Source: a virus (lineage: Duplodnaviria > Heunggongvirae > Uroviricota > Caudoviricetes). From it: a DNA stretch of 64,000 nucleotides. The notes beneath the pieces were generated by a model, which was given only the letters and a program-made list of their open reading frames with translations, did not search any database and had not been told where the DNA came from. Positions 3,149 to 30,472 of this stretch are shown here, in pieces. The stretch spans positions 21,726 to 85,725 of the IMG/VR virus record IMGVR_UViG_3300035156_000038; one strand, 5' to 3'. Position 1 is the stretch's first letter, and each line of letters opens with the position of its first letter. The position numbers were made by a program, and so were the translations under genes.

Positions 3149-3589
3149 ATGACAATTCTTGACCCAGCATCAAACATCGGCAAGATGCGACTGCGTTGCG
3201 GAGACTTTAGCGATCTACCCCTTATGCCCGACGAAGTATATATGTCGGCACTGGAAGATTGCAACGGCAATTTGCCGCAAGCTTGTATCTTGGTTTGCCG
3301 CTACATTCTGGCTTCCCTTACCGGGCAGACCCACCAGAAGCTAGCACAGGTTGAAGTGTATGGCCGTGAATGGTTCTTGAACTATAAAGAATTCATCCTG
3401 CTTACCATTAGCAACCCGAACTTCATGGCTTACGTGGCAATGCCTTACGCACCGTCGCTTAAAGATGAATGTGGTAATGACGTGCTACTGCCACTAGATC
3501 AGTTCCAACGGGACTGGAACGCGCTGTACGGCGTTACAGAGGCTAGGCAGAACCATGTGACGGCTACAGCTATCCACCCTTACTTTTAA
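3149..3589 (+). CDS. head-tail connector / head completion protein
   Basis: 146 aa; first gene after capsid; RBS AAAGGAGCAATCAATG. Confidence 0.35.
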   Translation: MTILDPASNIGKMRLRCGDFSDLPLMPDEVYMSALEDCNGNLPQACILVCRYILASLTGQTHQKLAQVEVYGREWFLNYKEFILLTISNPNFMAYVAMPYAPSLKDECGNDVLLPLDQFQRDWNALYGVTEARQNHVTATAIHPYF

Positions 3590-4831: not shown

Positions 4832-5293
4832 ATGGCAGTTTCAAAAGCACGCACCAGTGCAGGTACTAAGTTGCACGTGTCTACAGCAGCCCCAGCAACC
4901 TACGACAAAGCAGGCTTCATCGCCGTTGTCGCCGGTTCATGGAAAGAAGTTGGTGAGATTACCGACCTTGGTAGCTTTGGTAAGAAGTACAACCTTGTTT
5001 CGCACAACCCGCTAGGCGACCGTAAGACAATTAAGCGCCGTGGCTCGTACAACAACGGTACTCTATCACTGAAGTATGCAGCAGTTCCAACCGACGAAGG
5101 CCAAGTTATCCTTGACGCCGCTGGTGACGCATCGCTGTACTTTAAGGTAACAACCCAGTCGGGAAGCAAATACTACTTCTCGGGTCAAGTTATGGGTACG
5201 ACTCTGGAAATCGGTTCGGTCGATCAGATTATGGCCGGATCGTGCGACATCGAAATTGATGACGACATCATCCCTGACACGCTGGTAGCTTAA
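4832..5293 (+). CDS. major tail (tube) protein
   Basis: 153 aa; strong RBS AAAGGAAATACAAAATG; followed by strong intrinsic terminator; position before chaperones and tape measure. Confidence 0.45.
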   Translation: MAVSKARTSAGTKLHVSTAAPATYDKAGFIAVVAGSWKEVGEITDLGSFGKKYNLVSHNPLGDRKTIKRRGSYNNGTLSLKYAAVPTDEGQVILDAAGDASLYFKVTTQSGSKYYFSGQVMGTTLEIGSVDQIMAGSCDIEIDDDIIPDTLVA

Positions 5294-5300
5294 TACCAAT

Positions 5301-20484: not shown

Positions 20485-21870
20485 TTACACAATGTAGAAA
20501 CGCTTGCCGTATGCAGCGGTAGGGCCTGCATCGTACTGCTTCTTACCTTGCACGGTAGCTTGTGCACGGGCCATATCGCGGGTGTCGTAGAACGCAGCAT
20601 TCAGGGGTGCAACGTGGTAGCGAACACGGCCACCATCGGTAGGCAGGATCGGGCGTGGTGCACCGAAGAAGCCAGCAGGAGCAGCAGTTTTAGCAATCAC
20701 TTGCGCTTGGGTCGGGACAGCTTTCTTAGCAACCTTTTGTGGGTGCGGGGTAGGCTTGTTCGACACAGGCACGGCAGGCAGTTCGATTTCAGCAGGCTTC
20801 TTCGGTTGCAGGTACGCCAGATCAGCTTCGGTAAATGGCACGCCGATAGCTTCCCAGTAAACCACACCAGTGTCGCCCACCAGATGACGATTCACCGACG
20901 ACGACTGGATAAAGATGTCGAAGTTGCCGTGGTCGCCCGGATGCAGACGAACGTTGCTATCGGTAGGCAGGCCCAGCATTTGACGCGGGATGTCCTTACC
21001 TTGCTTGTCCTTACCGCCGTAAATCTTCTTGGTAGTACGGTCACGAACCAGAATCATCTTCGAAGGCTGCACACGTGCTTCCGTCTTGGTAAGCTGGTAG
21101 AAAGCAGCGCCCTTCAGGTATTGCATACGCTTAGTCAGGATGAAGTCACGGATTTCCAGCTTTTCACCAACAGCCAACGAAGGCACAACGTACAGCGAAA
21201 CGTCTTTGGTAACGTCAACCAGCGACGAAGTATCCACTGCACCAGCTTGAGCGTAGAACACGGTAGACGACTTCTGACCAGTTGCACGGGCAGCGTAGAA
21301 GTTGTTGAACGCCGCTTCGGTAGCCTGAGTCGAGTTAGCGAAGCCTGCTGCGGTTTGATCCCATGCTTGGATGTTACCCCGTGGGATGCCGATGCCAGCC
21401 AGCGTATCAACTTCGTTAGCAGGAACGCGGAACACGAAAGTCCAACGACCGTCACGCTGCGTCAGTTCGCGGATAGCTGCTGCTACGTCCGCACCACCGC
21501 CCTGAGTGTCACCGCCGTCAGTGGTCATCAGTACGACGAACGACACGTTAGGATCGGCGTAGTCAGGCATCGACTTAGCGAGCTTGATGATTTCCAGCAC
21601 GGTACGGAACAGCGGAGTGCCGCCCTGTGCAGGCCAGTTAGCCATAGGTTGCAGAACGTGCGGGTTCGAATTCACGATTTGACGGGTGATGCCACCGGGG
21701 CCGATACCGAAGCCGAACACCGAAACGATGGTGTCTTGCATTTGCTTGGTAGAAGCTTCCTTGACTGCCTTGATGTTTGCATTGAAGTCACGCTTCGCTG
21801 CGCTGGTCAGGCCGTGCATCGAACCCGAGTGATCGTTACCGAAAAAGATGTAATTCTTGATATGCGACAT
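20485..21870 (-). CDS. von Willebrand factor A (vWA) domain protein
   Basis: N-terminal IFFGNDHSGSM…T…TDGGD resembles a MIDAS motif (DxSxS…T…D); 461 aa; RBS AAAGGAGAAATACAATATG. Confidence 0.6.
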   Translation of the reverse strand: MSHIKNYIFFGNDHSGSMHGLTSAAKRDFNANIKAVKEASTKQMQDTIVSVFGFGIGPGGITRQIVNSNPHVLQPMANWPAQGGTPLFRTVLEIIKLAKSMPDYADPNVSFVVLMTTDGGDTQGGGADVAAAIRELTQRDGRWTFVFRVPANEVDTLAGIGIPRGNIQAWDQTAAGFANSTQATEAAFNNFYAARATGQKSSTVFYAQAGAVDTSSLVDVTKDVSLYVVPSLAVGEKLEIRDFILTKRMQYLKGAAFYQLTKTEARVQPSKMILVRDRTTKKIYGGKDKQGKDIPRQMLGLPTDSNVRLHPGDHGNFDIFIQSSSVNRHLVGDTGVVYWEAIGVPFTEADLAYLQPKKPAEIELPAVPVSNKPTPHPQKVAKKAVPTQAQVIAKTAAPAGFFGAPRPILPTDGGRVRYHVAPLNAAFYDTRDMARAQATVQGKKQYDAGPTAAYGKRFYIV

Positions 21871-21970: not shown

Positions 21971-23602
21971 TTATCCGTGAAGACGTTGCTTGATTTCTGC
22001 GAAGGTTTGGAAGTTAACAACCTTACCATCACGGAACACTTCTTTAAGCTGACCGCTTTCTTCTTGGAACGGACGCTGGCAATCGTACAGCACGAAGTTG
22101 TCACCTTCCTTTTCCACACGCAGCAGGCCCTTAGCGGACTTCTTCGAACCCGAGTCGGTAGCCGGGTCTTTCTGGATGTCGCGTTCTTCGCCGTTGACGA
22201 TGCCCCACGTAGCCTTGACGGCCATGCCGAACGTGTCACGGGTGATGTACTGGTAGGTGTAGCTACCAATGCCGAACACTACGTTGCCAGCCGAGAAGCC
22301 TTTATCCATCAAGCGTTGCAGGATGGTTTCACAGCGTTCCAGCGTAATGCTATCGCCGTAGATCAGGCCCACGTGACGGTCGATGGTCTTGAAACCCTTG
22401 TCGGTCACAGTGCCGCCGAACTCATCCCAGAGGCATTCGACAGCGCCCTTGACTACGTGTTCTGGAATCTCTTTGCCTAGACGCAGCGTATCGCTAGAGC
22501 TAGCATCGAATTCGTAGAACTTACCTTCGTACTTAACTGCATCGTAGTCATCTTCGAATTCCCATGCAACACACTCGCCCACGTGCAGGTCAGTGATTTC
22601 TTTGACCTTCAGACCAGTAAGAATCTTGACAGGATCGCCCGAGTCAGGACGGAACACAACCTTGGCGTTACCAAACGCGTCTTCCTTACGGGCCAGAATT
22701 TCGGCCTTAAGCAGCTTGGTAAAGCGGGTGATGACAGCCCAGAAGTCCCACGTATCCGACACGATGGACACGATACCCGATGGGTAGGTTTCGGTAATCA
22801 GACGGCGGAAAGTACCCACTTCGTCTTCCTTACCACCCATGCACATTACTGAGTGTTCTGTTGCCGGGACGCTACCAGCTACAAGTTCCTTCGTAACGTC
22901 AGCACCGTAGTAGTCTTCCAGATAGTCGATTGCCAACAGGGCATCGGTTCCCGAACCAGCGCACATCAGGTGGGCTGCACCGCACTTAGCGGAGTCAGCA
23001 CGCCCCGACATACCACGCATCGAGAAGTCATGCGCTTGCCAGTTGACGAACATTGGGTCGCTACCAGTCAGCGTAGCATACTTGTTAATCAGGCGGCGGT
23101 ATTCGAACGCGATGGTGCCAACGGTGATCGGCTTCCACAGTTCGCACGAAAGAACCGTTTCCAGATAGTTAGTAAGCCAGAAGAAGGCCGGGTGCGTGTT
23201 ACGGATCGTCAGGAACGGAACCTTGATGTCCACACGCGAACCTTCATCCAGAGCCTTGATGACGATAGGCAGGTAGCCAAGATCGTGCAGGGCTGCGATG
23301 TGGTCAACTCGTACCGAGTCTGGGCCAAGGAAGGCGTCACAACGGCGCTTGTATTCTGCCACTACTTCAGCTTTAGGACGCTGGAAGAAGCCTTCGTTCC
23401 ATTCTTCGATCAGGAATTCCATCGTGAAGCCTTGCAGGCCAGTGAACACGACTTTACCATCAAAGGTAGAAGGCATACGGGCGTGGGTCAGGCTACGAGC
23501 CGTGAAGTTCGAATAGACGTACTCCGTACCTTTCGGGTATTGGTCGATGTGGCCGAGCTTGTAGCTATCGAGGGCCAGATGTGGGCGACGTTTCATTATC
23601 AC
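21971..23602 (-). CDS. nicotinamide phosphoribosyltransferase-family protein (NadV/Namat-like)
   Basis: 543 aa; N-terminal 'LDSYKLGH…YPKGTEYVYSNFTAR' is the NAMPT signature (DSYK); length fits. Confidence 0.8.
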   Translation of the reverse strand: MIMKRRPHLALDSYKLGHIDQYPKGTEYVYSNFTARSLTHARMPSTFDGKVVFTGLQGFTMEFLIEEWNEGFFQRPKAEVVAEYKRRCDAFLGPDSVRVDHIAALHDLGYLPIVIKALDEGSRVDIKVPFLTIRNTHPAFFWLTNYLETVLSCELWKPITVGTIAFEYRRLINKYATLTGSDPMFVNWQAHDFSMRGMSGRADSAKCGAAHLMCAGSGTDALLAIDYLEDYYGADVTKELVAGSVPATEHSVMCMGGKEDEVGTFRRLITETYPSGIVSIVSDTWDFWAVITRFTKLLKAEILARKEDAFGNAKVVFRPDSGDPVKILTGLKVKEITDLHVGECVAWEFEDDYDAVKYEGKFYEFDASSSDTLRLGKEIPEHVVKGAVECLWDEFGGTVTDKGFKTIDRHVGLIYGDSITLERCETILQRLMDKGFSAGNVVFGIGSYTYQYITRDTFGMAVKATWGIVNGEERDIQKDPATDSGSKKSAKGLLRVEKEGDNFVLYDCQRPFQEESGQLKEVFRDGKVVNFQTFAEIKQRLHG

Positions 23603-24015
23603 TCTCCTTGTTCAACTGCTGCGATTTGTGCTTGGATACGGGCGATAGCTAACGCCTTATCCGTCATGGCGCGGCCACTTCCGTAGGAGCCTGAACCGAG
23701 ACTTTCATCGCGGCGACCGTCTGCGTAGGTTGCAAAGAGGCTGTACCACGCGTCAGGCCCGAACATTTTATCGGTGTCGGCTTCACGTACGTCAATGTCC
23801 AGACCGTTTATTTCAACCATGAAGGTATTTGTGCTCCACGGAATCAGCGCCATACCTTGTGATTGGAAGTGTGGCAAGGAAGCGGCAAGGCCAGCCGTGC
23901 AGAACAACGTGCCGCACGGTTCCTTCCGGGCATACGAAGACAGGTCAAAGTTCGCTTCCGGCTGGGCTTGCACAGCGCCCAGCAGGGTAAACAGATTTTT
24001 CAAAACTTGGTTCAT
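23599..24015 (-). CDS. small protein, paralog A (PCGTLFCxAGLAA motif), coupled to the NAMPT-like gene
   Basis: 138 aa; RBS AAGGAGAAGAAAATG; stop overlaps the Namat start; paralog of 25299..25694. Confidence 0.55.
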   Translation of the reverse strand: MNQVLKNLFTLLGAVQAQPEANFDLSSYARKEPCGTLFCTAGLAASLPHFQSQGMALIPWSTNTFMVEINGLDIDVREADTDKMFGPDAWYSLFATYADGRRDESLGSGSYGSGRAMTDKALAIARIQAQIAAVEQGE

Positions 24016-24041: not shown

Positions 24042-24437
24042 TTAACGGCGGCGCTTCGACAGGCTCACGCGGCTGCTGGATTTGCTGCTGCTAGCGAAGC
24101 GGCTGGTGAAGGTTGCTGGACGGCTACGGTTGATAACCGTCTTCTGAACCACCGTCTTGTTGATGATGGTTTGACGCACTGGTGCACGGCCATAGCCACG
24201 GTCGTAGTCGGAACCACGCGAGCCACCACCGCTAAGTGCCATGCCAGCCATAGCGCCCAGAGCCATGCTACCCGCGTCGATGCCGCCGCTTTCTTGCTGG
24301 ACAACGACAGGCTGTGCCGGGGCTTGTTGAGCCGGGGCGGCGATAACTTGTGGCTGTTGGATTGGTTGGGGTGCAGGGCCGCAAGCCGACAGGGCAGCAG
24401 CGAACAGGGTAGCGATAGCGATTTTCGATTTGAACAT
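24042..24437 (-). CDS. lipoprotein (Gly/Ala/Pro-rich, basic C-terminus)
   Basis: Signal peptide plus lipobox LSAC; 131 aa; RBS AAGGAGAATCAAAATG. Confidence 0.55.
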   Translation of the reverse strand: MFKSKIAIATLFAAALSACGPAPQPIQQPQVIAAPAQQAPAQPVVVQQESGGIDAGSMALGAMAGMALSGGGSRGSDYDRGYGRAPVRQTIINKTVVQKTVINRSRPATFTSRFASSSKSSSRVSLSKRRR

Positions 24438-24465: not shown

Positions 24466-25293
24466 TTAAACTACTACTACTTTGCCGCTTGCTACGGCTG
24501 CTTTGCCAGTAGCGCCGACAGGATTAGAAGTATATAAGCTATCTACCAATCCGTCAAACACTTTTTCACCAGCCGAGAAGATGCCGTGGGTTACATACAA
24601 CATAACTTTGCCAGTGGTCAGCTTGCGTAGCTCCTTAGCTAACTCCGTGAAGGTACGGCCACCGTCGCAGATGTCGTCCACGATCAGGAAGTCCTTATCT
24701 CCTACAGGCTCGCTGTACACTACGGTTCCCGTAATCTTACCCGACAGTACATCACGGGTCTTATCTGCACGAACAACGTTAGCATAACCGTACTCTTTGG
24801 CTATTGCAAGCACTTTCTTGTTAGCGCCTGCGTCTGGGCTAACTAGGATAGTTTGCCTGTTAGCGTGGTGGCTCATACCGAGGAAGTCGAACTTCGAATC
24901 CACGTGCATCAGGTTATCCAGTAGTGCAACGCCGACATCCGAGTGGATATTAAAGCACTGAACGGCACTGAACTTAAGGCCGTTGATGAAGTCGCAAGCA
25001 ACCTTCACAGACAGGCTTTCACCACGGGCGCACACACGGTCTTGGCGAGCGTATGGAAGGTACGGCATCTGCAATTCAATCAGGATGTCGTGCCCGAGTT
25101 CCCGGCGTACTGCGTCCACCAGCAGTGCCAGATTAAACAGGTCGTCGTTACCTTCAAATTCCAGCGTGATTTCTGCGAATGACGGCTGGTGTTCCACGGC
25201 TTCGGCGTCGATTTTGATAAACGTTTCCCCGGCAGGGAAGCGGCGAATCACGATAGATACATCCTTGTTGTCTACGGACAGTTGCAGGCTCAT
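24466..25293 (-). CDS. ribose-phosphate pyrophosphokinase-family protein (PRPP synthetase / Adps-like)
   Basis: PYLPYARQDR and LIVDDICDGGRTF are the PRS catalytic-flag and PRPP-binding motifs; 275 aa. Confidence 0.8.
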   Translation of the reverse strand: MSLQLSVDNKDVSIVIRRFPAGETFIKIDAEAVEHQPSFAEITLEFEGNDDLFNLALLVDAVRRELGHDILIELQMPYLPYARQDRVCARGESLSVKVACDFINGLKFSAVQCFNIHSDVGVALLDNLMHVDSKFDFLGMSHHANRQTILVSPDAGANKKVLAIAKEYGYANVVRADKTRDVLSGKITGTVVYSEPVGDKDFLIVDDICDGGRTFTELAKELRKLTTGKVMLYVTHGIFSAGEKVFDGLVDSLYTSNPVGATGKAAVASGKVVVV

Positions 25294-25298
25294 GTTTA

Positions 25299-25694
25299 TT
25301 ACTCCTTGGTTGTTTGTTCATTGGCTTTGTATTCCGCGATACGGTACTTCAGACGGGCGATAGCAAGCTGCTTATGGGTCAGTTTATCCCAGCCCAAATC
25401 TTCATCCAACCCGCCGCCACCCGCGTACTGGAACAGTTCGCTCATGGAGTTGGGGCCGAACAGGGGATCGCCACCACCGTCCCACACGGAAGTGCCGTTA
25501 AGGCTTGGGTCGCCGTCCCAGACCATGCCTAGTGCTTGGAATCGTGGCATGTTAGCAGCCAGCCCCGCTACACAGAATAGTGTACCGCAGGGCCTTTCCA
25601 TACGGAAGTTGTCAAGGTTGAACAGGCGTTCTGGCTGTGCTTCGACAGCAGCTAGCAGGGCTTCCAGATTTTCGATAATTGCTTGGTTACTCAT
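25299..25694 (-). CDS. small protein, paralog B (PCGTLFCxAGLAA motif), coupled to the PRS-like gene
   Basis: Start set at MSNQAI (RBS GAAGGAGAAGAACATG); 131 aa; shares LxAVEAQPE…PCGTLFCxAGLAA…P.FQ..GM with 23599..24015. Confidence 0.55.
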   Translation of the reverse strand: MSNQAIIENLEALLAAVEAQPERLFNLDNFRMERPCGTLFCVAGLAANMPRFQALGMVWDGDPSLNGTSVWDGGGDPLFGPNSMSELFQYAGGGGLDEDLGWDKLTHKQLAIARLKYRIAEYKANEQTTKE

Positions 25695-25821
25695 GTTCTT
25701 CTCCTTCGGGTTCGCCCGAGAACGGGCAGTTGGTTGGCCCCGGACAAGTGCCGGGCAGTTCATCGCCGCACACGCAGCGGGTTAGCTTCTTACGTGGGCG
25801 AACTTCGTAGTCGTTCGGGTC

Positions 25822-25995
25822 GTCAAGGGTGGGTGGCTGCGAGAACACCGAGCGCCCCTCCAAGCAACATGCAAATTGCACACATGGTACGTGCTTCTTG
25901 CGACCAGTATTGAATACTCATCGTCACATTGCCAAAAGAAAACAGCAGGAAGATAAGGGCTGCACCGCCGAAGAAGCCAATCAGGTTCTTAGTCA
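25822..25995 (-). CDS. small membrane protein (~57 aa)
   Basis: Sub-threshold ORF MTKNLIGFFGGAALIFLLF… with RBS AAGGAGTAACGAATG, downstream of the 26028–26056 promoter. Approximate. Confidence 0.3.
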
Positions 25996-26027
25996 TTCGT
26001 TACTCCTTAGTTACTTAAGATAAAGCT

Positions 26028-26056
26028 AGTATGCCTGCTTCCTACTTAGCTGTCAA
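26028..26056 (-). promoter_or_regulatory. sigma70-type promoter (leftward)
   Basis: Minus strand: TTGACA - 17 - CATACT. Confidence 0.5.
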
Positions 26057-26524
26057 GCTGTTTGGCAAAATAATTTCAATGCCAAGACGTTCCAGTTTGT
26101 CGTATAGGTCAACGCTAATCTTCCGCACAGGGAACACGATACTGCGCTTGCCGAGGCTTGCCATGTAGGTAGCCATATCCAAGCTACCCGTGCTTACTCC
26201 GTCCCACACAACAAGGGCTGCATCTGCGAAGTCGCCCATATCGTGATTACGTTGGATGCCAGCCATGACGTTGTACTTACCCCGGCTGTTCTTCTTAACA
26301 ACAGCGCCCGGAGCCTTGATGTTGTCCCAGTCAGCCGGGAAGTCGTGAATCTTCAAGCCAGCTTTCTTGGCAATCTCTTCGCCCAGCGTATCTACGCCCT
26401 TGGCCTTGCCGCTGACAACTTCGATAGCCTTGCCGTGTTCGGCCCAGAGGCCCGATTCAATAAGCGCACGCTTAACGGTGTCGTAGCTAGTGATGCTGCG
26501 GCTACCCGCGATGATAAGTTTCAT
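26042..26524 (-). CDS. SLOG-fold protein, DUF2493-like (predicted nucleotide/ligand binding)
   Basis: Start set at MKLIIAGSR (GGAG RBS); MKLIIAGSRS…VVSGKAKGVD…G pattern fits DUF2493/SLOG. Confidence 0.55.
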   Translation of the reverse strand: MKLIIAGSRSITSYDTVKRALIESGLWAEHGKAIEVVSGKAKGVDTLGEEIAKKAGLKIHDFPADWDNIKAPGAVVKKNSRGKYNVMAGIQRNHDMGDFADAALVVWDGVSTGSLDMATYMASLGKRSIVFPVRKISVDLYDKLERLGIEIILPNSLTAK

Positions 26525-26525
26525 G

Positions 26526-26765
26526 TTAGCTCCAAACGAAGTACAGTGCAACGAGTGCCACTACCAGAGTGATAGCACGATGCAGGGTTGATGTTTCTTT
26601 GTCATTGATGGGACAGAACGCGTACAGCATTCCGAAGCTGGTAATAAAGTAGGTAGCTACGATAGCCCCAGCGATTTTGAGTATTGCTTCCATTATTGTT
26701 CCTTTGCCCACTTGATAGCAGCCACAACGACATCGCCGTGGCAAGCCTTCGGATAGCAATAACAC
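26526..26765 (-). CDS. small membrane protein
   Basis: 79 aa, two hydrophobic helices. Confidence 0.4.
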   Translation of the reverse strand: MLLLSEGLPRRCRCGCYQVGKGTIMEAILKIAGAIVATYFITSFGMLYAFCPINDKETSTLHRAITLVVALVALYFVWS

Positions 26766-26986
26766 GCAAGCCGCTTCCCGTCCAGAGAACGTAAGTAGTC
26801 AAGCGTGATCTTGCCACGTTTTATTTCTCGCCATAGATACCTACGGTAGAGTTCGATAGCCACTTGCCGGGTAATCCCCGCCTCTTCGTTGATAGCGTAG
26901 ATATTCCCTAACGGCGATCCCCGGCCTATGTAGACATCATACTCTTGGTAGTGCTTGTTAACTACGGTTGCCACGAAGTTCCTCAC
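26693..26986 (-). CDS. DUF4326-like protein
   Basis: 97 aa; YIGRGS…GN…CYC.P..CHGD pattern as in DUF4326; overlaps neighbours. Confidence 0.45.
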   Translation of the reverse strand: MRNFVATVVNKHYQEYDVYIGRGSPLGNIYAINEEAGITRQVAIELYRRYLWREIKRGKITLDYLRSLDGKRLACYCYPKACHGDVVVAAIKWAKEQ

Positions 26987-27398
26987 GAATCTCCATTAGC
27001 AGCTTACCTAGCCAGTTCTGGCCCTCGCCGTAGCAAACACCCCAGAAGGTATCATACCACGTATTTTCTTCGATTAGCTCACGCTCTCCGGTAGCTAGCA
27101 AAGCAACGCGCAAGTAACCCCAGCTAAACTTCTCGCGTAGCAGGCCCCTCATAACATCCAGCTTGATAGCTTCCCAGTCAGGCCGTAGCGTGATTTGCTT
27201 GCCCATGCGTTTAGCTTGGCCGGGAGTTGTGCACAGCCGAATAGCTTCGCGGAATTCCTTCACCGTTGTTTTGGCAGCTTGGTAGGCATGTTCCACGGTG
27301 GGGTACATCACGCCTTCAAGCTCCACTTCGCAGAGCGTGAAGTTGGATAGCCAGCGGTAGTCACCGTGGAAGCCGCTGATAGGTAGCAGCTTGCTCAT
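26958..27398 (-). CDS. NADAR-domain protein (YbiA-like; ADP-ribose/NAD-related N-glycosidase family)
   Basis: FHGDYRWLSNF…YPTVEHAYQAAK matches the NADAR/DUF1768 core motif (Y..LSNF…EH.YQA.K). Confidence 0.7.
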   Translation of the reverse strand: MSKLLPISGFHGDYRWLSNFTLCEVELEGVMYPTVEHAYQAAKTTVKEFREAIRLCTTPGQAKRMGKQITLRPDWEAIKLDVMRGLLREKFSWGYLRVALLATGERELIEENTWYDTFWGVCYGEGQNWLGKLLMEIREELRGNRS

Positions 27399-28438: not shown

Positions 28439-28592
28439 TATTGTTTACTCCGTATAAAATTGTTCGTTTGATGTGGTCTGGTACAGCCACAACGCCTAGC
28501 TTCACCGCTTCTGCCCATACGTCCACCACACCGTAGCTAGGATGGTTGTAAAGGTTAAGAGGCGGGAACTTGTCATTCCACGCCTCGCCCAT
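28404..28592 (-). CDS. hypothetical small protein
   Basis: 62 aa; bridges RNR and glutaredoxin genes. Confidence 0.3.
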   Translation of the reverse strand: MGEAWNDKFPPLNLYNHPSYGVVDVWAEAVKLGVVAVPDHIKRTILYGVNNNGNEPLDGVLG

Positions 28593-30472
28593 TACTGGGT
28601 CACTTCACATTGACCGCCAGCACACGCAGCTTCCATCGTGTGTGCCGTGTTGTCGTCTTCTTCGTTGACCAACGTAAGGTCGAAGTTACCTTGTGCTTCA
28701 ATGTAGGCCATTAGACCTTCGTACAGGTCTTCAGAGCAGTCTTCAAACGGAGCCTGAACGTAGGTGCCACCGTCATACGGAAGCACGCTAATACCGTTGT
28801 ATTCGTCGCGGTACTTCCACATCCAATCGCCGCAAGCTTCCCACTCATCGCCCTTCAGGCTAATAGTGCAGGAAATGTTGTGACGTTGCACGCCACGGTT
28901 GTGTCCCGGCTTAATCCACTCTTGGTTAAAGCGGCGAACACGCTCTAGCAAGTCCATGAAGCTTTCCGTACGAAGAATACTACCTTCCGGGGCTTTCTGG
29001 GGGAACGACATCACAGCTTCAAGGTGCGGCTTAAACTTGCAGTCTTCCACCAGCAGCGGGAAGTTCTTCAGCATGTAGAAGTACAGTGCTTCGTTCTTAC
29101 CAACGCGCATACGGCGAATGTAGAAGTCATTGTGCCAAGCGTGCACACCCGACGAACTACCAACCACAATCGAAGCAGTACCTTCCGGCTTCATCAACGA
29201 AGTACGGGCAGCAGTGTTGACGCCAATGATAGCAGCTACACGGGCGTTCTCATCAACCACGTGGCTAGCGGCTTCTTCCCAGTCCAGCGGCAGAGCCTTA
29301 CCCGAGCCAATACCAGTGCACGACACACCAATCAACGAGTCGTCTTCAGTCACTTCACGCCAGATGCTACGCAGGTAGTGGAAGTTCGTGAAGCCAGCTT
29401 GCAACGTACCAATGAAGGTAGCAGCACGCGCACGCAGGTTCAATTCCTTTTGCGTACCAACATCGTCGCCGTTGATCGTCGTTAGGTTACAGAACGAGTA
29501 CATTTGCAGCGTAGCTTCCACGCATGGATTCGACAGGATGTTACGGTCGTTAGTCCAGTACACGCCCGGCTCACCCGCGTTCGAATCTTCTACACGCTTC
29601 CAGATAGCTTTAAACATCGCTTCGTCAATCGTACCACGCAGCAGCACAACTGAGTTGTTAGCACGGCCACGTTGAGGGTTCAGTTCCCACCACGCACCGC
29701 TCTTGCAGGTAATCATATCCAGATCGTCAGGGCTGAAGAACGCGATCATAGCAGCACGGCGAATACCACCCGACAAGACAGCATCGGCAATGTGGCATTG
29801 AATGTCGTGACACTCAAGCGGGGTCAGCTTACGTCCAATAGCACCGTTAAGCACCGTACGGATGTTCTCGATACAGATACGCAGCGGTTCTGGCCCCGGA
29901 GCTTTACCGCCAGCGGTAATCAGGCGTGCACCCTTCGGGCGAATATCGCCGTAGTCCATATCAGGATCAGCACGGCCTTCGAAGTAGGCACGTACAACCA
30001 CCTTAACTGCGTCTGCCCAGCCTTCGATACTGTCACCGACAACGAAGCGACGGCGACGGCTTGTAGGCCCCTTAACGGCTGGCAGTTGTTCCACGTGATG
30101 CTGCTGCACGCTGTAACCTACGCCCGAGCCACCCAGCAGCAGGAACATGGTTTCAGAGAACGAATGCAGGCTGTCTACTGGCAAGCAGCAGCAGTTGAAC
30201 ATACGCGTGTTGTTCATTTCGATTGGCTTACCGCCAAACTGCATCGAACGCATGGAAGGCAGCACCTTCTTGGTCTTCACGTACGTGTTAAATACGTAGG
30301 CAATTTCTTCGGCCAGCATCGGGTACTTAGCCATGTGCATACGCATGTTGCGCTCACAGATTTCTTCCCATGTTTCCCGGCGTCCTAGCTCTGGGATGTA
30401 CTTAGCATACTTGTTAAAGACCACAACATCGCTGAGAATCTTCTGCGATTTGTTCATCGGGGATTTACTCAT
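28592..30472 (-). CDS. nrdJ: ribonucleotide reductase catalytic subunit, monomeric class II-like (no NrdB in window)
   Basis: 626 aa; FNCCCLPVDSLHSFSETMFLLLGGSGVGYS aligns with the RNR Cys225/finger-loop region (…SCVL.ECGDSL…GIGIN); no beta-subunit gene nearby. Confidence 0.65.
   Translation of the reverse strand: MSKSPMNKSQKILSDVVVFNKYAKYIPELGRRETWEEICERNMRMHMAKYPMLAEEIAYVFNTYVKTKKVLPSMRSMQFGGKPIEMNNTRMFNCCCLPVDSLHSFSETMFLLLGGSGVGYSVQQHHVEQLPAVKGPTSRRRRFVVGDSIEGWADAVKVVVRAYFEGRADPDMDYGDIRPKGARLITAGGKAPGPEPLRICIENIRTVLNGAIGRKLTPLECHDIQCHIADAVLSGGIRRAAMIAFFSPDDLDMITCKSGAWWELNPQRGRANNSVVLLRGTIDEAMFKAIWKRVEDSNAGEPGVYWTNDRNILSNPCVEATLQMYSFCNLTTINGDDVGTQKELNLRARAATFIGTLQAGFTNFHYLRSIWREVTEDDSLIGVSCTGIGSGKALPLDWEEAASHVVDENARVAAIIGVNTAARTSLMKPEGTASIVVGSSSGVHAWHNDFYIRRMRVGKNEALYFYMLKNFPLLVEDCKFKPHLEAVMSFPQKAPEGSILRTESFMDLLERVRRFNQEWIKPGHNRGVQRHNISCTISLKGDEWEACGDWMWKYRDEYNGISVLPYDGGTYVQAPFEDCSEDLYEGLMAYIEAQGNFDLTLVNEEDDNTAHTMEAACAGGQCEVTQ

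Follow-up and report, generated by a model that had tools for sequence, protein, structure and literature searches.

A gene for a compact, single-domain, Rossmann-like protein of the YAcAr/DUF2493 family, predicted to bind nucleotides, is the last of the closely packed cistrons of a NADAR-DUF4326-orf55-SLOG cassette in the stretch of phage DNA analysed here (the window, 64,000 nucleotides), and the NARP1 genes Adps and Namat lie downstream of it on the same strand. We lean, tentatively, towards the reading that SLOG, NADAR and DUF4326 recognise or process ADP-ribose-linked N-glycosides and that the product feeds NARP1. The features concerned are:

26042..26524, minus strand: stand-alone SLOG coding sequence (YAcAr/DUF2493, PF10686; PHROG 289), 160 aa
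26028..26056, minus strand: predicted sigma-70-like promoter, TTGACA-17-CATACT, 10 of 12 consensus matches
26526..26693, minus strand: 55-aa open reading frame (orf55), read from the sequence, with a gene call also in locus L085
26693..26986, minus strand: DUF4326 protein (PF14216, E 4.9e-21), same transcription unit as SLOG
26958..27398, minus strand: NADAR protein (PF08719, E 1.2e-26; TIGR02464, 88.5 bits, above cut-off)
24466..25293, minus strand: Prs-like gene, Adps-type NARP1 component (Pribosyltran_N, E 9e-12; TIGR01251, 116.6 bits)
21971..23602, minus strand: NAMPT-like gene, Namat-type NARP1 component (NAPRTase, E 7e-37, and NAMPT_N; NF006629, 553 bits)

The SLOG reading frame runs from an ATG at 26524 (N-terminus MKLIIAGSRS), with a GGAG 8 nt 5' of it, to a TAG at 26042. 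This ATG was taken as the start because every homologue begins at the same MK[LV]IIAGSRS; a TTG at 26551 was ruled out by the starts of the homologues together with the Shine-Dalgarno sequence at ATG 26524. Pfam PF10686 (YAcAr, the former DUF2493, of the SLOG superfamily) matches the protein with an E-value of 9.5e-10 and a score of 38.6 bits, which exceeds the gathering score of 28.2, and PHROG 289 matches it with an E-value of 8e-25; the label of the latter, "GTP-binding domain", is a mislabel that neither fold nor motifs back. An earlier note on this DNA had placed the protein in the SLOG superfamily and called it free-standing, and both statements hold; the motifs that it quoted are invariant in the family, and the 160 residues form a single domain. 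With the 5 kb surrounding the gene as query, a megablast search of 50,697 phage records gave no match, and to judge by its sequence no closely related phage has been cultured. The protein itself adds one more member to a viral family that is already catalogued and very large (27,273 clusters at 50% identity) and whose stand-alone architecture of about 115-170 aa is found in hundreds of phages, in haloviruses, in pandoraviruses and in marseilleviruses; few viral accessory domains are as widespread as YAcAr/DUF2493, which phages share with archaeal viruses and giant viruses.

With a pLDDT of 96, the AlphaFold model is of high confidence; it describes a three-layer Rossmannoid fold that contains a parallel sheet and resembles DprA, LOG and YpsA. 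The solved structures nearest to it are DprA and ShosA, followed by TM1055, YpsA and LOG, with ShosA as the best match, and the SLOG domain of ThsA, to which the earlier note had compared the protein, comes after all of these at rank 18. A molybdenum-cofactor carrier was rejected as an identity, being merely a structural neighbour, and the hepatitis E ORF2-like matches of a single-sequence PDB search (E 0.3-1.3) were discarded as spurious. When the protein was scanned with PADLOC at E-values up to 1, only the DprA-like PsyrA and ShosA matched, weakly (E 0.0015), and no ThsA model did; a specific likeness to ThsA is not borne out, and the protein is unlikely to be a ThsA-like sensor.

These comparisons bear on two of the alternatives. 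A non-catalytic sponge for TIR-derived signals (gcADPR isomers, His-ADPR) that blocks Thoeris-like immunity, the leading idea of the earlier note, would suit a small, early-expressed, stand-alone protein within an NAD-centred island, but we consider it very unlikely: ThsA ranks no higher than 18th among the structural matches, there are no matches to ThsA HMMs, a sponge would not typically be fused to enzymes as relatives of the protein are (NADAR, DUF4326, exonuclease, polymerase), and the family, with its 27,273 clusters, is spread much more widely and reaches archaeal and giant eukaryotic viruses, in which Thoeris is not an obvious target. The folds of the known Thoeris sponges Tad1 and Tad2 are unrelated to SLOG, which also counts against it. 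The analysis found no evidence that favours sequestration, and the protein is probably not a stoichiometric sponge. An antitoxin mimic, which would stand in for ShosA- or PsyrA-type antitoxins and neutralise the PRTase toxins of ShosTA or PsyrTA, is in our view highly improbable. ShosA as best structural match and PsyrA and ShosA as the sole PADLOC matches would agree with it, and a SLOG mimic could act in trans because ShosA neutralises ShosT indirectly, via ssDNA and RecA, and not by binding the toxin; the matches are, however, weak, confined to residues 5-57 and to the generic GSR and GxAxGxD motifs, the protein is without the SAM domain and the dimer interface of ShosA, and neither the fusions nor the wide viral distribution would be explained.

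Within the cassette the genes are packed to the point of overlap, the NADAR gene overlapping the start of the DUF4326 gene and the start of orf55 overlapping the stop of DUF4326, while the stop of orf55 lies 1 nt from the ATG of SLOG. DUF4326 is described in the literature as rhodanese-phosphatase-like; orf55 has two hydrophobic stretches (membrane topology judged by eye only) and a family search with it gave no match. The cassette sits in an early region with sigma-70-type transcription, and SLOG is placed between RNR/glutaredoxin and the Prs-like gene. Downstream of it, Adps and Namat are both encoded on the same (minus) strand, as in the definition of NARP1, and no terminator was predicted from NADAR through Namat; the interval from SLOG to Adps holds a promoter-like site and variable small genes. 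The NAD/ADP-ribose gene island that had been described around SLOG is present, with NADAR, DUF4326, Adps and Namat.

The promoter-like site overlaps the last SLOG codons (S-L-T, AGC TTG ACA) and the stop codon, and points into a 57-aa open reading frame, a paralogue and then Adps ... Namat. The number of such sites in the region, 7 against an expected 6.1, is in line with chance, and any one 30-nt window has a background probability of about 2% per locus of holding one. In each of the 12 related loci an equivalent site lies at most about 30 nt from the stop codon of SLOG; in one of them, L009, SLOG has a different C-terminus and the stop precedes the site. Because its position is conserved in all 12, the site at 26056..26028 is probably real. 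The earlier note had located it correctly in the 3' end of SLOG, reading towards NARP1, but had called it the gene's own promoter; from its position and direction it is predicted to drive the downstream NARP1 genes and not SLOG itself.

In an alignment of 117 SLOG homologues, in which column identity averages 35%, all sequences (117/117) share A6-G7-S8-R9 and G39-x-A41-x-G43-x-D45. The strictly invariant polar residues, namely those of G7-S8-R9, G39-x-A-x-G-x-D45, R92-N93 and D108-G-x-S111-x-G113-[ST]114, fall on the secondary-structure map at the C-terminal ends of strands 1-4, and the loops that follow strands 1 and 2, glycine-rich or polar, together with R92-N93 in the helix after strand 3, are as expected for the SLOG superfamily. 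In the model these residues form what is predicted to be the canonical SLOG ligand pocket. The region corresponding to the PGGxGTxxE of LOG reads W107-D-G-V-S-T-G-S-L-D116, in which residue 116 stands at the position of the catalytic Glu of LOG; 60% of homologues have D there, and the others have G, H, Q or N. The invariant R92 is the conserved Arg of the LOG phosphate/ribose-binding pair, in the helix after strand 3, and its equivalents according to EVADES (10.1101/2025.06.06.658234) are R89 of ORF83 and R115 of Cg1261. At the other end of the protein, the SLOG of this clade has a C-terminal extension of about 25 residues (helix 138-146 and a short strand), and the full 157 profile positions are covered by one 50%-identity cluster representative only.

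The pocket brings in a further alternative, a LOG-type nucleoside-5'-monophosphate phosphoribohydrolase (AMP or (d)NMP to base and ribose-5-phosphate) that reshapes nucleotide pools or supplies ribose phosphate. Such a role has been proposed for ORF83 of phage DruSM1 in EVADES (10.1101/2025.06.06.658234), where R89, N90, T112 and D114 are the AMP contacts predicted by a co-folding model. The gp82 of the Queuovirinae phage CAjan (PF10686, E 2e-18) has R89, N90, T112 and D114 exactly as published for ORF83, and from gene order and residue numbering we infer that it is the orthologue of ORF83; a Kuravirus homologue, 172-1 gp050, was set aside as its counterpart, as it does not fit the published residue numbers. 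With gp82 the SLOG protein of the window shares 31% identity (E 8e-17), and the four contacts map through it onto R92, N93, S114 and D116. The position of the gene between RNR/glutaredoxin and the Prs-like enzyme, and ThyX, MazG and dNMP kinase as neighbours in other phages, would also suit a LOG-type enzyme. This reading seems to us distinctly unlikely all the same: Pfam LOG (Lysine_decarbox) does not match the protein at E-values up to 1, WDGxSxG[ST]x replaces PGGxGTxxE with an acidic position that is D in only 60%, the AMP contacts of ORF83 come from a co-folding model rather than an assay, and the fusions to NADAR and DUF4326 are left unexplained.

These fusions, found among the closest family representatives, comprise NADAR-SLOG (P0332), NADAR-SLOG-DUF488 (P0352) and DUF4326-SLOG (P0330). 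DUF4326 adjoins SLOG in pSb-1, L005, L021 and L087, and unrelated phages in which DUF4326 or NADAR adjoins SLOG are the N4-like pSb-1, L021 and L067. Because close relatives are fused to NADAR or DUF4326 and the genes are packed into one cassette here, we link the SLOG protein to ADP-ribose chemistry. To this extent the link made in the earlier note stands, but its NARP1 part is limited to one clade. In the SLOG-anchored clade of phages of about 90 kb, all 12 loci retain the order SLOG ... Adps ... Namat, with SLOG identities of 55-75%, while the intervening genes turn over, and in two of the relatives (L091 and L094) a Macro gene, Adpp-like, follows Namat. NADAR and DUF4326 are missing upstream of SLOG in 8 of these 12 loci, as found by local searches in which single DUF4326 and NADAR seeds under-detect and in which counts were still low when rerun with three and two seeds. 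Neither Adps nor Namat was found within 10 kb of SLOG in any of 71 SLOG loci outside the clade, SLOG is missing from three of six Adps-anchored NARP1 loci (the syntenic L093 included), and the cultured phages that carry SLOG and those that carry Adps largely differ. The association of SLOG with NARP1 is thus specific to one phage clade and not obligatory.

Elsewhere the company of SLOG is of another kind. In 60 non-redundant loci, the 149 nearest neighbours on its own strand are genes of DNA replication, recombination and nucleotide metabolism, with families such as SMC_N/SbcC, Metallophos, ThyX, PhoH, MazG, ligase, helicases and Pol A, and none of NADAR, Macro or DUF4326 is among the top 25 neighbour families of these loci. 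Other relatives are fused to PolB or to a DnaQ-like exonuclease, and in ICP1 a SLOG relative is fused to the SF1B helicase HelB. With a median pI of 9, the family is basic. When its profile was compared with PDB sequences, DprA alone was recovered at E < 0.05, with GSR, SGxAxGxD, RN and SxGS in common. Knocking out ORF83 in DruSM1 made the phage more sensitive to AVAST type III, as did a knockout of DNA ligase (Ojima et al., bioRxiv 10.1101/2024.04.14.589459).

Taken together, these observations would suit a minimal DprA-like ssDNA-binding accessory of replication, recombination or repair, without NAD chemistry, for which the adjacency to NARP1 would be clade-level synteny in an early nucleotide-metabolism block. 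Such a protein would account for the PDB sequence matches and their shared motifs, for the weak matches to PF02481, TIGR00732 and PsyrA/ShosA, for the fusions to PolB, exonuclease and HelB, for SbcCD, ligase, helicases and polymerase adjoining SLOG elsewhere, for the basic family, and for the sensitisation of both knockouts to a nuclease-type defence. We nevertheless hold it to be somewhat unlikely, since the scores are far under the thresholds for DprA (17.5 against a cut-off of 191 bits for TIGR00732; 23.9 against 29.6 for PF02481), the protein is without SAM and winged-helix domains, ORF83 is without the DprA dimerisation and RecA-binding residues (EVADES, 10.1101/2025.06.06.658234), and the fusions to NADAR, DUF4326 and DUF488 are left unexplained. 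The strict invariance of the pocket (D45, D108) likewise exceeds the need of a generic DNA surface, yet DprA conserves similar motifs. If this alternative were true, it would revise the prediction of PMC9503650 that viral SLOG domains act mostly in NAD+/ADP-ribose pathways.

On the ADP-ribose reading, to which we lean, the SLOG pocket would take a ribose-5-phosphate N-glycoside of the ADP-ribose type, either a free NAD-derived product or signal or an ADP-ribose on a base of single-stranded DNA. The protein might then cleave the N-glycosidic bond in a LOG-like manner, or hand the substrate over to NADAR and DUF4326. The freed ADP-ribose would be a substrate for the rebuilding of NAD+ by Adps and Namat; SLOG would be an accessory "clean-up" part of the toolkit of the phage against NAD depletion and ADP-ribosylation. 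A more specific version appears unlikely to us, namely that YAcAr SLOG is a LOG-like N-glycosidase that opens TIR-made glycocyclic ADPR, or strips ADP-ribose from DarT-modified ssDNA bases, with release of ADPR, and that with NADAR and DUF4326 it silences the signal or lesion and feeds NARP1. If true, this would add an "extended NARP1" as a new counterpart to NARP1-AP, and a viral family with over 27,000 clusters would receive its first biochemical assignment.

For the ADP-ribose reading speak the fusions, the cassette, the independent adjacency, the synteny in the clade, the precedent of a NARP1 accessory and the prediction of PMC9503650, as well as the fold and family, the invariant pocket and the lack of a predicted terminator from NADAR to Namat. 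Against it speak the 0 of 71 loci with NARP1 outside the clade, the replication-type neighbours, the ssDNA-binding nearest structures, the loss of NADAR/DUF4326 in 8 of 12 and of SLOG in 3 of 6 loci, the variable residue 116, and the fact that the family has a single experimental result, a knockout with raised sensitivity to a nuclease-type defence. The locus offers a clean natural setting for the decade-old prediction that viral SLOG acts on ADP-ribose derivatives, and could reveal further "feeder" enzymes of NARP1 beyond the Macro phosphatase.

The idea of viral SLOG domains directed against ADPR signals was already published in 2022 by Iyer, Burroughs and Aravind (PMC9503650), who proposed that these domains degrade cADPR-type signals and pointed out their linkage to Macro, NADAR and DUF4326. 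Compared with the SLOG of ThsA from type I Thoeris, which binds 3'cADPR (structure 7uxs), the protein of the window belongs to the same superfamily and has its ligand pocket at the same topological site, but is without an effector-domain fusion (SIR2 or TM). With DprA and ShosA, the nearest by solved structure and PDB sequence, it has the phosphate-binding motifs in common, whereas these proteins are two to three times larger, carry SAM or DML1 domains, dimerise and bind RecA. ORF83/gp82 differs from it in its length of 130 aa, in a more LOG-like FPGGAGTMD motif and in its surroundings, which are small genes of the late region and lack NAD genes. SLOG, NADAR and DUF4326 go unmentioned in the NARP1-AP preprint and its supplements (Osterman et al. 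2026), in which NARP1-AP is Adps-Adpp-Namat and the accessory is a Macro-domain ADPR-1''P phosphatase. NARP1 operons recruit enzymes that turn non-canonical NAD products into ADPR (Macro/Adpp; bioRxiv 10.64898/2026.01.28.702374), and, like NARP1-AP, the locus of the window pairs NARP1 with candidate ADPR-handling accessory genes in the same orientation.

The gene at 26042-26524 of the window is read on the minus strand from an ATG at 26524 to a TAG at 26042 and encodes a 160-aa protein beginning MKLIIAGSRS. As GGAG stands 8 nt upstream of this ATG and every homologue begins with MK[LV]IIAGSR, the ATG is taken as the start, and a longer, mechanically listed TTG start (26551) was overruled on the same grounds. 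The product matches PF10686 in Pfam (E 9.5e-10, 38.6 bits for a gathering score of 28.2), that is YAcAr, the 'YspA, cpYpsA-related SLOG family' formerly called DUF2493, and phrog_289 in PHROGs (E 8e-25), whose label, 'GTP-binding domain', is not borne out by the SLOG fold; a DprA match in Pfam remained below threshold (23.9 bits). The SLOG-family gene that the earlier note had placed here is thereby confirmed: it is real, its family assignment is secure and its domain is clearly of the nucleotide-pocket type.

An AlphaFold2 model from a 117-sequence alignment (pLDDT 96.2, pTM 0.89) was compared with the PDB by Foldseek and matched ShosA (8zva, E 3e-7), DprA (3uqz, 4ljk), a Moco-binding protein and LOG-family proteins. 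When the family profile was run against PDB sequences, DprA alone fell below E 0.05, and the motifs of the family and of DprA can be aligned (GSR with G[ST]RR, VSGxAxGVD with VSGGALGVD, RN with ARN, SxGS with SGS). The sole NCBIfam match was dprA, far under threshold, and the PADLOC scan gave weak matches to PsyrA and ShosA (E 0.0015) and none to the ThsA models. These results therefore place the protein on the DprA/YpsA side of the SLOG superfamily; it is neither a ThsA-like sensor nor a canonical LOG enzyme. The suggestion that it is a sponge for NAD-derived immune signals is very unlikely; the sponges Tad1 and Tad2 are unrelated in fold.

Among the 117 homologues (mean column identity 35%), A6, G7, S8, R9, G39, A41, G43, D45, W66, A88, G89, R92, N93, M96, S111, G113, [S/T]114 and M117 are invariant, and D101, W107, D108 and G109 are conserved in at least 90%. 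In the model the conserved residues directly follow strands 1, 2, 3 and 4, those of strand 3 being preceded by a 25-residue insert with W66 and a beta-hairpin, and as modelled these positions are the usual SLOG pocket. The family is basic (median pI 9.0). A LOG-type NMP hydrolase is quite unlikely; LOG-family proteins are among the structural matches, and only 60% of sequences have D at position 116, the counterpart of the catalytic Glu in LOG.

All window genes from ~20.2 kb to 58 kb lie on the minus strand, and this block holds DNA polymerase A, primase-helicase, ATP-dependent DNA ligase, RNA ligase, thymidylate synthase and exonuclease, as well as RNR (PHROG match) and glutaredoxin (Grx; PHROG match, also Pfam). 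It includes Adps (Prs-like) and Namat (NAMPT-like), the components of NARP1, a pathway that rebuilds NAD+ from ADPR.

Genes around SLOG in the window
28592-30472, minus strand: RNR, 626 aa (PHROG 367; no Pfam match on record)
Between RNR and NADAR, minus strand: Grx, then four small ORFs
26958-27398, minus strand: NADAR (E 1e-26)
26693-26986, minus strand: DUF4326 (E 5e-21)
26526-26693, minus strand: orf55, 55 aa, two hydrophobic stretches, no family match
26042-26524, minus strand: SLOG, 160 aa (PF10686)
25823-25996, minus strand: 57-aa ORF, two hydrophobic stretches, no family match
25299-25763, minus strand: 154-aa protein, paralogue of the 138-aa protein
24466-25293, minus strand: Adps-like Prs
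24042-24437, minus strand: 131-aa lipoprotein-like ORF with …AALSAC lipobox and Pro/Gln-rich stretch
23599-24015, minus strand: 138-aa protein, paralogue of the 154-aa protein
21971-23602, minus strand: Namat-like NAMPT
20485-21870, minus strand: 461-aa protein (PHROG 26613)

The NADAR and DUF4326 genes overlap, orf55 abuts DUF4326 and the SLOG ATG lies 1 nt from the orf55 stop; the cistrons of this cassette are thus translationally packed, with SLOG coming last. From 28133 to 21500 the minus strand has no predicted terminator-like site. The 55-aa and 57-aa mini-proteins flank SLOG directly, one on each side. The 138-aa and 154-aa paralogues (39% identity, E 1e-24; common motif CGTLFC[TV]AGLAA) bracket the Adps gene, have no match in Pfam, PHROG or NCBIfam, and have homologues at the same place in three related loci (L006, L009, L011). 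Between Adps and Namat, the 131-aa ORF resembles a lipoprotein, secreted or membrane-bound, that has been inserted into a metabolic operon. The 461-aa protein, without a PDB sequence match, is a candidate further NARP1-associated gene, which follows Namat either immediately or with a single small ORF in between; ORFs of 438-461 aa, likened to it by size and place alone, occupy its position in L087, L092, L093 and L094. In L093 (565-3378) the counterpart of the window RNR has 937 aa and a LAGLIDADG (intein or homing endonuclease) insertion.

A promoter within the SLOG 3' end, reading into the NARP operon, had also been proposed. A sigma-70-like site, TTGACA-17-CATACT, does lie at 26056..26028 (minus strand), the regional count of such sites being at chance level (7 found vs 6.1 expected). 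An equivalent (TTGACx-17/18-xAxAxT) is present ~30 nt or less from the SLOG stop in 12/12 related loci (L005-L013, L087, L091, L092), for a background chance of ~2% per locus; in L009, where the SLOG C-terminus differs, it falls just past the stop. With this positional conservation, the site is probably a real early promoter firing into the downstream genes; its -35 hexamer is written in the C-terminal SLOG codons S-L-T (AGC TTG ACA). It would part SLOG from Adps and Namat transcriptionally, with possible read-through. Throughout the clade, the SLOG 3' end has been retained as a stretch with both coding and regulatory use.

This clade consists of ~90-kb uncultured phages: nine of the 80 loci retained from 363 IMG/VR stretches with SLOG relatives, plus L085, L087, L091, L092 and L094, reached by other routes. 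The order Grx ... SLOG ... Adps ... Namat is conserved, with SLOG identities of 55-75% and turnover of the small genes between. NADAR and/or DUF4326 lie upstream of SLOG in 4/12 clade loci (window, L087, L091, L005), and L091 and L094 have a Macro gene after Namat. When six loci were picked from Adps matches outside the SLOG list, three (L091, L092, L094) carried SLOG; L090, L093 and L095 had none within flanks of 5-7 kb each side, though L093 is otherwise syntenic. Outside the clade, Adps or Namat occurred within 10 kb of SLOG in 0/71 loci.

At 50% identity, a full HMMER scan recovered 27,273 clusters of the family with a cut-off of E ≤ 1e-3, and 12,042 with E ≤ 1e-10, the best 150 matches being mostly stand-alone proteins of ~115-170 aa. 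Of the cultured-phage records, 412 carry the family, among them Kuravirus, N4-like, Queuovirinae, Vibrio, Bacillus and Campylobacter phages, and 1,555, in largely different groups, carry Adps-like genes. Jumbo phages, haloviruses, pandoraviruses and marseilleviruses have relatives in BFVD, and one of these proteins bears the annotation 'dual specificity phosphatase / DNA processing protein'. At 60 non-redundant SLOG loci, the 149 genes nearest on the same strand include SMC_N/SbcC, Metallophos, ThyX, peptide deformylase, PhoH, SNF2, MazG, DNA ligase, helicases, exonuclease and Pol A, with NADAR, Macro and DUF4326 absent from the top 25 families. In the N4-like Shigella phage pSb-1 (L003), two DUF4326 genes (3220-3546 and 4917-5297) bracket SLOG (gp46, gp48, gp51) with no NAD-salvage genes nearby, so the SLOG-DUF4326 link is independent of NARP1. 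DUF4326 also lies beside SLOG in L021, and NADAR in L067.

Domain scans of ten of the longer close relatives found NADAR-SLOG, NADAR-SLOG-DUF488, DUF4326-SLOG, PolB-SLOG and DUF6939-SLOG fusions, SLOG joined to a DnaQ-like RNase_T exonuclease in two, and extensions without assigned domain in three (fusion handles: P0352, P0332, P0330, P0296, P0253, P0289); in ICP1 HelB, an SF1B helicase, the SLOG domain is C-terminal. The partners thus form two classes, ADP-ribose-processing (NADAR, DUF4326) and DNA replication/repair (polymerase, exonuclease, helicase), which together suggest, from domain architecture, that ADP-ribose chemistry may be linked to DNA replication or repair.

Deletion of DruSM1 ORF83 ('Smf/DprA') lowers plating on AVAST type III hosts, as does deletion of DNA ligase ORF55, ORF72 or ORF84 (Ojima et al. 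2024). In EVADES, ORF83 is modelled as LOG-like and AMP-binding (residues R89, N90, T112, D114), and amoeba-virus homologues fused to DUF4326 are noted. CAjan gp82 (Queuovirinae), whose position matches ORF83, has exactly these residues, matches PF10686 (E 2e-18) and shares 31% identity with the window protein (E 8e-17), in which they correspond to R92, N93, S114 and D116.

The strongest functional clues, the fusions and the packed NADAR/DUF4326 cassette, tie SLOG to ADP-ribose N-glycoside chemistry. We tentatively favour a recogniser or processor of ADP-ribose-linked N-glycosides: with NADAR and DUF4326 it would handle these compounds, and the released ADPR would find an obvious sink in NARP1, its clade-wide neighbour. 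The structural likeness to DprA/ShosA, the fusions to DNA enzymes, the DNA-metabolism genes around SLOG at other loci and the ORF83 phenotype pull the other way, towards a plain DprA-like ssDNA accessory, which we consider rather unlikely. Both sets of clues would converge if the substrate were ADP-ribose on ssDNA bases. NADAR domains are hydrolases of ADP-ribosyl-guanine on DNA; DarT1/NADAR systems are an example. The interpretation of the earlier note is thus partly supported, its ADP-ribose link being upheld by the fusions and the cassette.

Of the structural matches the best is ShosA, a DprA-like antitoxin that binds ssDNA and RecA and has a PRTase toxin as its partner. Adps matches PADLOC PsyrT (E 5e-5). 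As a phage pair, Prs-like Adps with its PRTase fold and the DprA-like SLOG weakly resemble the toxin-antitoxin pairs PsyrTA and ShosTA; this may be a chance likeness in fold or may hint at antitoxin mimicry, and that SLOG is such a mimic seems highly improbable. Iyer et al. (2021, PMC7824862; 2022, PMC9503650) connected phage YAcAr/SLOG with Macro, NADAR and DUF4326. In their proposal, viral SLOGs sense cADPR-type signals or break them down, with 1'-ribosyl N-glycosidic bonds as the point of action, and they called these domains experimentally uncharacterised; the protein joins a known, very large family and its proposed role is already published as a prediction. NARP1 operons recruit accessory enzymes that convert non-canonical NAD products to ADPR, Macro/Adpp being present in 15% of them (Osterman et al. 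2026), and SLOG, NADAR and DUF4326 are not mentioned in that paper or its supplements. The locus is a clean test case for the uncharacterised YAcAr family and a possible further extension of NARP1.
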